Shown here: positions 6,969-10,652 of the stretch, piece by piece
Numbering within the stretch: the stretch's first letter is position 1
Layout of the letters: the number at the start of each line of letters is the position of its first letter
From: a virus
Taxonomy: Duplodnaviria > Heunggongvirae > Uroviricota > Caudoviricetes
IMG/VR virus record: IMGVR_UViG_2636415906_000003
Coordinates: 1 to 32,747 of that record
Length of the DNA: 32,747 nucleotides
Direction: 5' to 3' (one strand)
Position numbers and translations under genes: made by a program
The notes under the pieces: generated by a model
Seen by the model: only the letters and a program-made list of their open reading frames with translations
What the model was told of the DNA's origin: nothing
Databases searched by the model: none

Positions 6969-7034
6969 GGGTAACTCCTTATATTTGATTGCATAACGAA
7001 AACGCCTCGAGTGAAGCGTTATTGGTATGCATAT

Positions 7035-7058
7035 AAAAAAGCCCTCACACTGGAGGGC
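7035..7058 (-). terminator. Rho-independent terminator on the minus strand between N and cIII (tL1-like)
   Basis: Perfect 6-bp stem gccctc/gagggc with 6-nt loop (7041..7058), followed on the minus-strand transcript by six U (plus-strand A run 7035..7040). Confidence 0.55.
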
Positions 7059-7275
7059 AAAGAAGATTTCCAATAATCAGAACAAGTCGGCTCCTGTTTA
7101 GTTACGAGCGACATTGCTCCGTGTATTCACTCGTTGGAATGAATACACAGTGCAGTGTTTATTCTGTTGTTTATGCCAAAAATAAAGGCCACCATCAGGC
7201 AGCCTTGTAGTTCTGTTTACCAAGTTCTCTGGCAATCATTGTCGTCGTTCGTATTGTCCACACCATTGATTCTTA

Positions 7276-7362
7276 TCAATAGTCGTAGTCATAAGGATAG
7301 TCCTGGTATTGTTCCATCACATCCTGAGGATGCTCTTCGAACTCTTCAAATTCTTCTTCCAT
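7276..7362 (-). CDS. Very small acidic ORF (28 aa, MEEEFEEFEEHPQDVMEQYQDYPYDYDY)
   Basis: Preceded by a GAGGTG SD and lying 9 bp downstream of the N stop; too short to be sure it is coding. Confidence 0.25.
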   Translation of the reverse strand: MEEEFEEFEEHPQDVMEQYQDYPYDYDY

Positions 7363-7370
7363 ATATCACC

Positions 7371-7670
7371 TCAAATAAGTGGTTTGCTGCCTAATTTCAT
7401 TTTCTGGCGACCAACACAAGTCACACCCATTTCACTGCGTGGCTTGCGGTAGTAAATACGGTTCTGTTTACGCTCGACTTCTTCTGCCTTCTTGCAGCGA
7501 AGGCTGCCAAGTGATGCTGCTTTGTCTGCTCTGACGCAACCAGAGAGCTTTAGCGCAATCTTCCGCGCCAGTCGCTGTTCTTTCATTGCCTGTTCACGTT
7601 GAGCCTGTCTGCGTGCTCTGCGGCGATTTCTGGCGTTATCGTCAGCCAGATATGTAATGACTACTGTCAT
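7371..7670 (-). CDS. N: Antitermination protein N
   Basis: Arginine-rich motif near the N-terminus (NARNRRRARRQAQREQ) and a C-terminus (YYRKPRSEMGVTCVGRQKMKLGSKPLI) that aligns with lambda N (WYSKPGERGITCSGRQKIKGKSIPLI). Start taken at the ATG with a GGAGG SD. Confidence 0.8.
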   Translation of the reverse strand: MTVVITYLADDNARNRRRARRQAQREQAMKEQRLARKIALKLSGCVRADKAASLGSLRCKKAEEVERKQNRIYYRKPRSEMGVTCVGRQKMKLGSKPLI

Positions 7671-7683
7671 GTTGACCTCCGAT

Positions 7684-7744
7684 GAAACAACTTTGGAATT
7701 GATAGTGATTGCAAAGTTGTTTCTGGCCCCTCGAATTGAGGGGC
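7684..7744 (-). promoter_or_regulatory. Two tandem stem-loops in the N leader next to the N ribosome-binding site
   Basis: 12-bp inverted repeat gaaacaactttg / caaagttgtttc (7684..7695 and 7712..7723) ending 3 nt from the N SD, plus hairpin gcccctcgaattgaggggc (7726..7744). Confidence 0.4.
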
Positions 7745-8068
7745 AGAAAGAGCATCTCGCCACCTAATAGGTCGATGCTCGGATCGAGAGATTTAATTAA
7801 CCTCGGTTTTGAAGTTATGCATTCACATAAATCCTCCTGTTGCATGTGCAGCATTGGCTGTGTTTGGCGGCTGCATTTCGCCCATGGAATTGACTTTGGC
7901 GATTGGATGGCCGGTGCTGAACTCCGGCTTACTGGTTAGAGCGCCCGCACTACCAGTGACGCTGTCTTGAGGCGCAGATTGGTTACTGCTTGCCATGAGC
8001 GCTGTTTATACATTGGTCGAGCATCAGCCTGCTCATTCATCCAATCCCAAAGCCAACTACTCTTTGGT

Positions 8069-8109
8069 TCCCGCATTTCGGCGGGACAATCCCATCAATG
8101 TTAAAGAGC
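8069..8109 (-). promoter_or_regulatory. nutL: boxA plus boxB hairpin in the leftward early transcript
   Basis: On the minus strand boxA reads GCTCTTTAACA (plus 8099..8109) and is followed by the hairpin ttcccgc-cgaaat-gcggga (plus 8069..8086); the same boxA and boxB occur at nutR. Confidence 0.6.
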
Positions 8110-8156
8110 CTGCCAATCTGTTCCGTTTGGCTTCCAGCGTCCTGCTGATGGCTTAA

Positions 8157-8240
8157 ATTTAAGATCTCTTTAATTAATGGTCAAGAGTATTTTTGAAGAA
8201 AACTTAAATTTTCTTTCGTAACTTAAGTTTGGCTTTGATT
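8157..8240. promoter_or_regulatory. OL/pL region with P22-type operator-like sites
   Basis: atttaagatctctttaat (8157..8174) has the same TTAAG..CTTTAA half-site structure as the operators at OR, and two weaker similar sites follow up to about 8240. Confidence 0.45.
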
Positions 8241-8252
8241 TTTAAAGGAAAT

Positions 8253-8275
8253 AAAAAAAAGGGGCGAATGCCCCC
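8253..8275 (-). terminator. Rho-independent terminator directly after the repressor gene stop
   Basis: Hairpin ggggcgaatgccccc (8261..8275) followed on the minus-strand transcript by eight U (plus-strand A run 8253..8260). Confidence 0.5.
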
Positions 8276-8926
8276 TTATGGAAGGTTTGCTAGTTTTGCA
8301 TCGACAACTACGCCGATGATTTTGCAGTTTCCGTTGATCTCGATCATCGGATATTGTGGGTTAAGTGGTTTTAGAAACTTCCTGCCTGCATCAATAACTA
8401 ACTTCTTGAAAGTTGCCTCGTTTTCTCCTTCGAGCTTTGCAACTACCAGTTTCCCGTTACGCGGCTCTACTTCAGGATCGACGAGTATTATCATTCCTTC
8501 AGGGATACTGAGACCGGCCGGAGCCGTCATTGAGTCTCCCTTCACGTCCAACCAAAACGAATCTTCTGAACAGTCTACGGTTGTATCGTACCAGTTATCT
8601 ATTGCACGCTTATGATATGGTTCTACAGCTTCCATCCAGCATCCTGCGCTCACCCAGCTAATCAGAGGGTATGACCCTCTTGGATCATGCCTACTGTGAT
8701 AGGCAATGTTTGAAAGACTTTCCTCTCCTTTCATCAGATAGTCAGGGGAACACTTCAACGCATTAGCCAGGGCGAGAAGATTCTCTCCATTTGGCTCTGT
8801 CTCAGAGCGTTCCCACTGAGATATGGCAACATTAGACACGCCGACCATCTTTCCAAGTGCGGCCTGCCTGATCTTGAGTTCTTTTCTCCGAGCGCGAATG
8901 CGCTCTCCCATCAATTGAGTTTTCAT
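8276..8926 (-). CDS. cI: Prophage repressor, P22 C2-type (HTH plus S24 LexA-like autopeptidase domain)
   Basis: 216-aa ORF that is near-identical to my memory of P22 c2 (MKTQLMGERIRARRKELKIRQAALGKMVGVSNVAISQWERSETEPNGENLLAL...); divergent from cro. Confidence 0.9.
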   Translation of the reverse strand: MKTQLMGERIRARRKELKIRQAALGKMVGVSNVAISQWERSETEPNGENLLALANALKCSPDYLMKGEESLSNIAYHSRHDPRGSYPLISWVSAGCWMEAVEPYHKRAIDNWYDTTVDCSEDSFWLDVKGDSMTAPAGLSIPEGMIILVDPEVEPRNGKLVVAKLEGENEATFKKLVIDAGRKFLKPLNPQYPMIEINGNCKIIGVVVDAKLANLP

Positions 8927-8992
8927 AGTTAAGACATCTTAAATAAACTTGACTTAAGATTCCTTTAGTGGATAATTTAAGTGTTCTTTAAT
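8927..8992. promoter_or_regulatory. OR operator region (pRM/pR) with three P22-type operator sites
   Basis: agttaagacatcttaaat (8927..8944), cttaagattcctttag (8953..8968) and atttaagtgttctttaat (8975..8992) share TTAAG-N4-CTTAA symmetry, in the 80-bp gap between the divergent repressor and cro starts. Confidence 0.6.
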
Positions 8993-9006
8993 TTCGGAGC
9001 GAGTCT

Positions 9007-9192
9007 ATGTACAAGAAAGATGTTATCGACCACTTCGGAACCCAGCGTGCTGTAGCTAAAGCGTTAGGCATTAGCGACGCAGCAGTCTCTCAGTGGAAGG
9101 AAGTCATCCCAGAGAAAGACGCCTATCGACTGGAAGTCGTTACAGCTGGCGCCCTGAAGTATCAAGAAAGCGCTTACCGCAAAGCGGCATAA
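9007..9192 (+). CDS. cro: Cro repressor
   Basis: 61-aa ORF with GGAG SD; sequence matches my memory of P22 Cro (MYKKDVIDHFGTQRAVAKALGISDAAVSQWKEVIPEKDAYRLE...). Confidence 0.85.
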   Translation: MYKKDVIDHFGTQRAVAKALGISDAAVSQWKEVIPEKDAYRLEVVTAGALKYQESAYRKAA

Positions 9193-9199
9193 GCAAATT

Positions 9200-9243
9200 G
9201 CTCTTTAACAGTCATGGTCCTCATTCCCGCCGAAATGCGGGAA
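9200..9243 (+). promoter_or_regulatory. nutR: boxA plus boxB hairpin between cro and cII
   Basis: boxA gctctttaaca (9200..9210) and hairpin ttcccgc-cgaaat-gcgggaa (9224..9243); this is the reverse complement of the nutL elements, so both sit in the same orientation in their transcripts. Confidence 0.6.
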
Positions 9244-9300
9244 TACAACGCGCATAAGTTGATGCGCATAACTTCTTATTTGTTAAGGAAATACTTACAT

Positions 9301-9579
9301 ATGGAACTTACAAGTACTCGCAAGAAAGCGAATGCAATTACAAGCAACATCCTGAATCGAATTGCTGTACGTGGTCAGCGAAAGGTTGCCGACGCGTTAG
9401 GGATTAATGAATCGCAAATTTCGCGATGGAAAGACAGCTTCATCCCAAAAATGGGAATGCTTCTGGCTGTTCTTGAATGGGGTGTTGAAGACGAGGAGTT
9501 GGCGGAACTGGCTAAGAAAGTAGCCAGAATGCTGACAAAAGAAAAAGCCCCGAAGAACGGCGAATTCTTCGAGGCCTGA
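9301..9579 (+). CDS. cII: CII-like transcriptional activator (P22 C1 equivalent)
   Basis: Aligns with lambda CII ([25 protein letters not shown] conserved). Start taken at ATG 9301, because the longer ORF from 9214 would run across nutR. Confidence 0.8.
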
Positions 9580-9613
9580 TGTAGAAAGACTGGATCAATC
9601 CACAGGAGTCATT

Positions 9614-9760
9614 ATGACAAAACAACTCAGTCCTTACCAGGACAAAATTCACAAACACATACTACGTGATCGCTTCCTGTCCAGCTTCAAGCAGCCTGGT
9701 CGATTCCGGGCTGAGTTGGAAAAAGTGAAGCTGATGCAGAAGGAGAAAGGTCATGAGTAA
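9614..9760 (+). CDS. Small hypothetical protein (48 aa) between cII and the replication genes
   Basis: ORF with an AGGAG-like SD, its stop overlapping the O-like gene start; positionally like the small ORF between c1 and gene 18 in P22. Confidence 0.4.
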
Positions 9761-10652
9761 CATATCTAATCTAGCCGAAGCCAGAGAGGCCAGAAGGCTA
9801 CAACAACCGCATCAAAGCAGCGGTAAGGGGTATGCCTTGCTGCACCGTAAAATTATGGATGTGCCGTTTTACAAGGACGCAGAAGCTGCGCATCTGTGGG
9901 TTCACTTAATCCTCAAAGCAAAGCATACGCCTGAGTATGTAATGACTGACGCAGGAGAAATTCTGGTAGGCAGAGGGAAGCTACTTGGCGGTAGAAACTC
10001 TCTGGCGTTTGAAACAGGACTCAAACCAGATCGCGTTCAGTACCTGCTTAGAAAGTTCAAAAAACTCGGCATGATTGACTGGGTTTCACACGGTAAATTC
10101 TCAGTTTTCTCGGTAGAGAAATATGACGATTATCAGTCAAATTTTGTACCAGCAGATTACCAGCAAATTACCACCTCAAAGCCAGCAATACCAATGCCTG
10201 CAAGCAATACTGTACCAGCAGATTACCAGCAAATTACCACAGATAAAGAATATAATAATATTATCTCTAATACTGACGTATTAGAGAGTACCGCAGCAGA
10301 CAAAAAGTCTGACAAGAAAAAACCTTCCGTTAGCTGTCAGGATGTTGTCGATGCTTACCACGAAATCCTTCCTGAAGCGCCAAGAATCCGCGCACTGAAT
10401 GACAAGCGTAAAAACCAGATCCGAACGTTCTGGCGCAAAGCCGGAGTGATAACCCGCCAGCTTGACGGGCATGGGTTCACGATGCAGGACTGGAGAAATT
10501 ATTTGAGCTACGTAGGCGAAAATTGCCGATGGATGTTCGAAGAGCGTCCAAACCATCAACGCGGAACCGTCTGGCACAAAAAGGGATTTGATTTCCTGCT
10601 TAACGATAATACCTACCTGAAAGTTCGTGAGGGTGAACACGATGACCGATAA
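9753..10652 (+). CDS. Replication initiator protein (lambda O / P22 gp18-like), containing the origin iterons
   Basis: 299-aa ORF directly upstream of the helicase gene; it contains tandem DNA iterons that encode a repeated [10 protein letters not shown] peptide, followed by an AT-rich tract. Confidence 0.65.
10145..10240. repeat. Origin-of-replication iterons inside the initiator gene
   Basis: Two exact 30-bp direct repeats tgtaccagcagattaccagcaaattaccac (10145..10174 and 10211..10240), each containing TACCAGCA sub-repeats at 11-bp spacing, followed by an AT-rich region to about 10300. Confidence 0.6.

Follow-up and report, generated by a model that had tools for sequence, protein, structure and literature searches.

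HK620-type nut sites around a P22-type repressor cassette: a probable N antitermination system of interchangeable modules in a P22-like Escherichia coli prophage

The subject of this study is a pair of matching N-utilization (nut) sites, nutL and nutR, and the N antitermination gene that would act through them, in a virus sequence of the Caudoviricetes (IMG/VR record IMGVR_UViG_2636415906_000003, positions 1 to 32,747; this whole stretch is called the window below). Overall, the window is a Lederbergvirus like Sf6, HK620 and N7, and positions 7300-9700 form a lambdoid early-control region with genes for a repressor, Cro, a cII-type activator and N. As the early-control region of a P22-like E. 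coli prophage it is ordinary: a P22-type repressor cassette lies between nutL and nutR. Among phage records, CUS-3, IME10, Gally and N7 are the closest, and 142 of 5,426 complete E. coli genomes contain at least 80% of positions 7300-9320.

An initial annotation of the window had proposed that the same boxA and boxB hairpin occur on both sides of the repressor gene, and we were able to confirm these elements. On the minus strand, that of the leftward transcript, boxA of nutL (GCUCUUUAACA, 8099..8109) is followed after a 12-nt spacer (8087-8098) by a boxB hairpin (8069..8086) with a 6-bp stem, UCCCGC/GCGGGA, and the loop CGAAAU (8080-8075). On the plus strand, the boxA of nutR (GCUCUUUAACA, 9200..9210) and its 12-nt spacer (9211-9222) precede a hairpin (9223..9244) with an 8-bp stem, AUUCCCGC/GCGGGAAU, and again the loop CGAAAU (9231-9236). 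Thus an identical boxA, GCTCTTTAACA, stands about 12 nt (12-13) 5' of each hairpin on the strands transcribed from pL and pR. The left boxA aligns with boxA-L of phage 21 and nutL of P22, the right one with boxA-R of phage 21 and with nutR of P22 and HK620, and the two hairpins are those annotated as nutL and nutR in HK620. The core CCCGC-CGAAAU-GCGGG, present at both sites, places them in the HK620-type class.

The likeness of the two hairpins goes back to an exact inverted repeat of 18-19 nt, through which leftward and rightward early transcripts receive a hairpin of the same sequence. A repeat search returned a 19-nt inverted repeat, 100% complementary, at 8068-8086 / 9225-9243, and a second one (8092-8109 / 9200-9217; 18 nt, 89%) that covers boxA. 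The 18-mer TCCCGCCGAAATGCGGGA is found at only two places in the 32.7 kb, one on each strand, even when up to two mismatches are allowed, and none of 100 shuffled sequences contained any match. BoxA by itself is weak evidence, with two exact sites in the window and two or more one-mismatch matches in 18 of 100 shuffles; it is the unit of boxA plus hairpin that is statistically remarkable, and not boxA alone. Furthermore, both hairpins are predicted to be stable and to fold far better than shuffled sequences, at -12.5 kcal/mol for nutR (z -4.5, equalled by none of 200 shuffles) and at -10.5 kcal/mol for nutL (z -2.6).

The arrangement is that of a lambdoid N/nut system. A boxA of the consensus type, a GCUCUUUAACA-like NusB/NusE site, stands 5' of each hairpin on the transcribed strand, and each hairpin has the properties of a lambdoid boxB, which are a stem of 5-8 bp, a purine-rich loop of 5-6 nt and no U-tract. 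Of the two copies, one lies between pL and N and the other between cro and cII/tR1, so that the placement proposed at the outset holds on both sides: nutR begins 8 nt past the cro stop codon (cro ends at 9192) and ends 57 nt ahead of the cII ATG (at 9301), and on the other side 396 nt separate nutL from the start codon of N. The start of the pL transcript, transferred by alignment from the annotated starts in the phage 21 and P22 records, would be at ~8148, about 40 nt upstream of boxA-L. By homology, therefore, transcription from pL starts upstream of nutL and not downstream of it.

Hairpins repeated around an immunity region might also be something other than N targets, for example remnants of a recombination 'boundary sequence', or terminators or RNA-stability hairpins that flank the region by chance. 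The surroundings of nutL are indeed a recombination junction, and CUS-3 annotates the region left of its 'cI' repressor gene only as 'bsq5; boundary sequence'. In addition, covariation within this boxB type, counted over six distinct nut variants, is negligible: the loop and the upper four stem pairs are invariant, and the two compensatory pairs, all in one divergent relative (L197), are no better than shuffles. Because the covariation is not significant, support for the hairpins rests on thermodynamics, position, analogy across phages and co-occurrence with a particular N-terminus. These speak strongly for nut sites. Neither hairpin is followed by a U-run and a terminator scan calls nothing at either, so that they are not intrinsic terminators; in each of the two divergent operons the hairpin keeps a fixed 12-nt distance from a consensus boxA on the strand that is transcribed; and phage 21, P22 and a Pantoea prophage have this architecture at corresponding positions, with other hairpin sequences. 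As described below, the hairpin sequence follows the N-terminus of N and not the adjoining immunity genes. We therefore regard a non-N origin of the hairpins as very improbable.

The N gene (7371..7670 on the minus strand, stop codon included) is an open reading frame of 99 codons for amino acids (aa), preceded by the Shine-Dalgarno sequence GGAGG, and its product matches PHROG 271, 'anti-termination protein N-like' (E 1.8e-36). At the C-terminus it can be aligned (E 3e-4) with lambda N as present in the antitermination complex PDB 6GOV. Residues 1-33 (7572-7670) hold the arginine-rich motif DDNARNRRRARRQAQREQ, assigned by sequence as RNA-binding. The protein is a mosaic of three parts, in which residues 1-33 are arginine-rich and of HK620 type, residues 34-64 are common to phage 21 and HK620, and residues 65-99 are of the phage 21/lambda type. 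Accordingly, it is 98% identical to CUS-3 N over all 99 residues and 97% identical to HK620 N over residues 1-64, whereas HK620 N has a P22-type C-terminus (...CLPNVAIYAAGYRKSKQLTAR) and ends like the P22 gene 24 protein. The sequence MxVVITYLADDNARNRRRARRQAQREQ, which marks the HK620-type class, is present at its N-terminus. A tblastn search with the 37-aa N-terminus alone gave no match, probably through low-complexity masking of the arginine-rich stretch, and the full N query did give matches. As a possible source of this N type, H-19B N was rejected on account of its motif, RSRRRER (PMC3526286).

The predicted boxB loop has 6 nt at both sites and the form C-N4-pyrimidine, as in the hexaloop of phage 21. 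The boxB pentaloop of lambda is GAAAA or GAAGA, and the lambda boxA is CGCUCUUA. The boxB sites of P22, folded for comparison, have GACAA as their pentaloop core, with a closing U-A at nutL and with C...C on its two sides at nutR. None of these pentaloops is found at the sites studied here, and the P22 gene 24 protein has a different arginine-rich motif, GNAKTRRHERRRKLAIER; P22 does have a boxA of the consensus type. The observation in the initial annotation that a 6-nt loop is unlike those of lambda and P22 is therefore correct, whereas the loop is not unusual among lambdoid phages, for which the phage 21 loop CUAACC is a precedent. In the complex with the N peptide (PDB 1NYB), the core UAAC of the phage 21 loop folds in a GNRA-like manner, with a C-C pair at its flanks (PMC12550061). 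By analogy with the phage 21 arrangement C[UAAC]C, we infer that the loop of the window, C[GAAA]U, probably forms a GNRA tetraloop with a C.U mismatch as its closing pair.

Comparison with phage 21 (OL657228) is the most instructive. Conserved between the two phages are the leader from pL to boxA-L, the operators, N residues 34-99 and the stretch that runs from cro up to boxA-R; over the segments compared (pL to boxA-L, cro to boxA-R, and N), differences are confined to N residues 1-33 and to the boxB hairpins of nutL and nutR. The phage 21 class is marked by the loop CUAACC and the motif TAKSRYKARRAELIAERR; here the loop differs at three of six positions, and of the first 33 N residues only 6 are identical, as against ~97% of residues 34-99. 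The stems are unrelated, those of phage 21 being CUCUCAAC-CUAACC-GUUGAGA at nutL and UCACCU-CUAACC-GGGUGA at nutR. The sites of the window would thus be built like phage 21 boxB and yet lie outside the phage 21 specificity.

These are true nut sites, in our view, and the remaining question on this comparison is whether N and boxB might nevertheless be interchangeable with those of phage 21 or lambda. Several similarities point that way: phage 21 boxB, with a stem of 6-7 bp, likewise has a hexaloop, and both loops begin with C and have AA at positions 3-4; the arginine-rich regions are colinear and equal in length, with A13, R16 and A19-R20-R21 in common; and the lambda loop also contains GAAA, the lambda loop GAAAA and the GAAA core both being GNRA-like (PMC12550061). 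Such interchangeability is nonetheless unlikely. The abrupt change from 6 of 33 matching residues to ~97% of the next 66 is the signature of a swapped specificity module, and it is accompanied by the differences in loop and stem just described.

The distribution of this boxB in other sequences bears on the same point. At least 120 IMG/VR contigs contain the boxB 18-mer, for the most part in divergent pairs, and in the 91 sequences with both copies (fetched loci together with the window) the copies are divergent, at nutL-nutR spacings of ~1155, 1231, 1696, 1740 and 2009-2990 bp. As these spacing classes differ, different immunity cassettes lie between the nut sites. Across the cassettes the sequence 5' of boxA varies, and the stretch from boxA to boxB is constant. 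At nearly all loci chosen by their boxB, the N-terminus given above is encoded 3' of the nutL copy, joined to a C-terminus of either the phage 21 type or the P22/HK620 type. Similarly, when loci were chosen by N, 72 of 80 had a copy of this boxB on each side, and the other eight are cut-off contigs, rearranged remnants (L149 and L196), one divergent relative, or a phage 21-type N. At the single locus with a phage 21-type N-terminus (L185), both nut sites carry the phage 21 boxB. A mixed pair, with this N-terminus and another boxB, was not seen in ~150 public loci, although the flanks recombine freely.

Co-occurrence without mixed pairs is what would be expected of a specificity module, and across cassettes and with both types of C-terminus it supports a separate N specificity. 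The suggestion in the initial annotation that N has a distinct specificity is thereby strengthened, together with the split in identity to phage 21 N. There is precedent for both halves of this argument: in P22 and phage L, the C-terminal parts of N can be exchanged with nut specificity unchanged (PMC8022706), and in phage epsilon34 a new N-terminus was read as a new boxB specificity (PMC2629481).

The more distant relatives are also informative. In the divergent relative L197, the loop and upper stem are kept, and in its nutR two pairs of the lower stem show compensatory changes. A prophage in the chromosome of Pantoea sp. FN060301 (L126, 2650-4270) encodes an N that begins MTVVITYLA as here and continues AKSRYRARR as in phage 21, and its hexaloops differ within the one phage, CUGACA at nutL and CUAAUC at nutR. 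This prophage was one of two loci confirmed in a scan with N residues 1-64, for which the back-translated patterns were too unspecific. A degenerate scan for lower-stem variants (DCCGCCGAAATGCGGH) was dominated by chance 14-mer matches in environmental contigs; only two matches had a boxA-like word nearby, and these look unrelated. Of the two rearranged remnants, both IMG/VR contigs, L196 has a nutR boxB that is broken after CATTCCCGCCG and has lost the N reading frame, and L149 has an intact N coding sequence joined at the ribosome-binding site to unrelated upstream sequence, with nutL absent; both are apparently defective relatives.

The cassette between the nut sites is of the P22 type. The repressor gene (8276..8926, minus strand) encodes a LexA-like protein of 216 aa of the P22 C2 type, with the Pfam domains HTH_3 and Peptidase_S24 and 92% identity to P22 C2, and an intrinsic terminator follows it at 8258-8277. 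On the plus strand, cro (9007..9192) is of the P22 type (Pfam P22_Cro, E 8.7e-28, and alignment with P22 and phage 21), and the first gene 3' of nutR (9301..9579) encodes a cII/C1-type activator (Pfam Phage_CII, E 1.2e-42). A consensus scan placed pL at 8156..8184 on the minus strand (-35 TTGACC, 8184-8179; -10 TAAATT, 8161-8156), where it is homologous to pL of phage 21 and P22, and pR at 8949-8976 on the plus strand (-35 TTGACT, 8949-8954; -10 GATAAT, 8971-8976).

P22-type operators had been proposed on either side of the repressor gene, and the sites found there bear this out. To the left, OL1 (ATTTAAGATCTCTTTAAT, 8157..8174) and OL2 (TTTGAAGAAAACTTAAAT, 8192..8209) were identified by their symmetric pattern and by homology with the annotated operators of phage 21; the degenerate OL3 (ACTTAAGTTTGGCTTTGA, 8221..8238), which misses the pattern at up to one mismatch, was identified only through its homology with the OL3 annotated in phage 21. 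To the right, OR3 (8927-8944), OR2 (8952-8969) and OR1 (8975-8992) were identified by the pattern and by alignment with the annotated operators of P22 and phage 21. The pattern TTAAG-N4-CTTAA, with at most one mismatch, has six matches in the 32.7 kb as against 0.85 expected, a number reached in none of 100 shuffles, and five of the six are OL1, OL2, OR3, OR2 and OR1, in two operator clusters. OR1 is identical to OR1 of P22, and OR2 and OR3 are one base off each. With a C2-type repressor, a P22-type Cro and three 18-bp ATTTAAG-N4-CTTAAAT operators on each side, the immunity can be assigned by sequence to the P22 / phage 21 type (immC).

Between this cassette and nutL lies the first part of the leftward leader, from the putative pL start to boxA-L (8110..8148, minus strand), which was delimited by alignment with P22, phage 21, CUS-3 and HK620. 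The segment (GCCATCAGCAGGACGCTGGAAGCCAAACGGAAC..., 8110-8148) is near-identical in these four phages, while the HK620 operators just upstream are unrelated, and the CUS-3 record labels this area 'bsq5; boundary sequence'. It looks like a conserved homology linker that would let immunity cassettes and N/nut modules recombine.

On the other side of nutL, the N leader (7671-8066, minus strand) has 396 nt as against 107 nt in HK620, within a range of 62 to more than 1000 nt among relatives. It is itself a mosaic, with its first 178 nt matching IME10, Gally and Stx2c phages and its last 231 nt matching HK140, and no phage record reaches 80% coverage of it. A 57-aa open reading frame in the leader (7823-7996, minus strand) had no match in Pfam or PHROG and was not treated as a gene. 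Just 5' of the N Shine-Dalgarno sequence there are two strong hairpins (7684-7745, minus strand), one being GCCCCUC...GAGGGGC and the other a 16-nt inverted repeat, 94% complementary, at 7684-7699 / 7708-7723. The predicted 106-nt fold has -32.7 kcal/mol (z -3.0; equalled by none of 200 shuffles). By analogy, these hairpins may correspond to the RNase III processing stem of the lambda N leader.

Two structures were also noted around nutR on the plus strand. Directly after it there is a hairpin, GCGCAU-AAGUUG-AUGCGC (9250-9267), whose stem recurs in P22 with another loop, and phage 21 has a different stem (GCGGCA/UGCCGC) in the same place. From this comparison the structure appears to be conserved with compensatory changes, and it is probably part of the tR1 region, since HK620 annotates tR1 just upstream of it. 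In the minimum-energy fold, boxA-R (UCUUUAACAG, 9202-9211) pairs with the region of the cII Shine-Dalgarno sequence (UUGUUAAGGA, 9280-9289) over 10 bp, two of them G.U. HK620 and CUS-3 do not differ from the window over this pairing, which probably comes about incidentally, from the likeness of boxA to an anti-Shine-Dalgarno sequence.

Taken with the other known phages, these features define where each part of the region has its counterpart. The nut positions align in phage 21, P22 and HK620, and the sites are unchanged in HK620 and CUS-3. In HK620 (NC_002730 / AF335538), boxA, spacer and boxB of both nutL and nutR are the same base for base, as is the sequence from nutR to the start of cII; its RefSeq record annotates them as 'nutL; putative N-utilization leftward' and 'nutR; putative N-utilization rightward'. 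The immunity cassette of HK620 is unrelated, with a cI annotated as similar to those of phages 434 and L and with other operators and another cro. CUS-3 (CP000711), and also IME10, Gally and N7, combine the P22-type repressor, operators and cro with the HK620-type nut sites and N, as the window does. CUS-3 differs in the leader from nutL to N, with ~74% identity over the last 231 nt, and in the cII region, which diverges past the start codon; its record is without nut annotation. Finally, lambda shares the layout of boxA, spacer and boxB in both early transcripts, and at its C-terminus the N of the window is homologous to the end of lambda N that binds RNA polymerase. Thus, the exact type of nut site and N is already known, being on record in HK620, CUS-3 and many prophages. 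Judged by these likenesses, the pair of boxB and arginine-rich motif is of the HK620 specificity type, the operators, repressor and cro are of the P22/phage 21 type, and the C-terminus of N is of the phage 21/lambda type.

We conclude that the region most probably holds a standard lambdoid N/nut antitermination system built of interchangeable modules, and we put the probability of this at roughly 0.9. Its mode of action would follow the lambda paradigm, which is established knowledge (see also PMC3526286), and it is from the sequences, positions, predicted folds, homologies and co-occurrence given above that we infer binding, antitermination and dependence on Nus factors. The transcripts from pL (start ~8148, leftward) and pR (start ~8983, rightward) would each carry boxA and then boxB. 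With its arginine-rich helix, N made from the pL transcript would bind boxB on each of the two nascent RNAs, and the consensus-type boxA would recruit the host NusB/NusE. Together with NusA and NusG, RNA polymerase would then resist the terminators 3' of nutL and nutR, and the delayed-early genes would be expressed.

Several observations weigh against this conclusion and should be kept in view beside the negligible covariation. N scored 19.9 bits against Pfam N_peptide, below the cutoff of 27.9 bits, and an Rfam scan of positions 7000-10000 (E <= 1) gave no match, Rfam being without a nut or boxB family or model. The nut annotation of HK620 is itself marked 'putative', and the searchable literature yielded no experiment on binding or antitermination by this boxB/N pair. 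The phage 21 N/boxB pair, in contrast, has been structurally characterised, and no such work on the pair of the window was found there.

A bolder proposal is that the HK620-type pair represents a fourth mode of N-boxB recognition, fully orthogonal to the modes of lambda, P22 and phage 21 and different in structure from each. The arginine-rich motif of lambda N includes Trp18, and the N motif of the window lacks an aromatic counterpart to it. In such a mode, the GAAA tetraloop with its C.U closure would be read by an arginine-rich helix without an aromatic stacking residue. We offer this tentatively, as a possibility that somewhat less than even odds would describe. If it were true, the pair would be a new orthogonal tethering tag of peptide and RNA, and a natural case of arginine-rich motifs and loops changing together.

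In summary, this work has little significance beyond the correct annotation of a P22-like (Sf6/HK620/N7-like) E. coli prophage that combines three known modules. The N/boxB specificity that it carries is widespread, and the biochemistry and structure of the pair are the remaining point of interest. For the lambdoid phages as a family, the region is a clean textbook case of mosaicism, with only the boxB hairpins of nutL and nutR and codons 1-33 of N swapped together relative to phage 21 and the flanks conserved.

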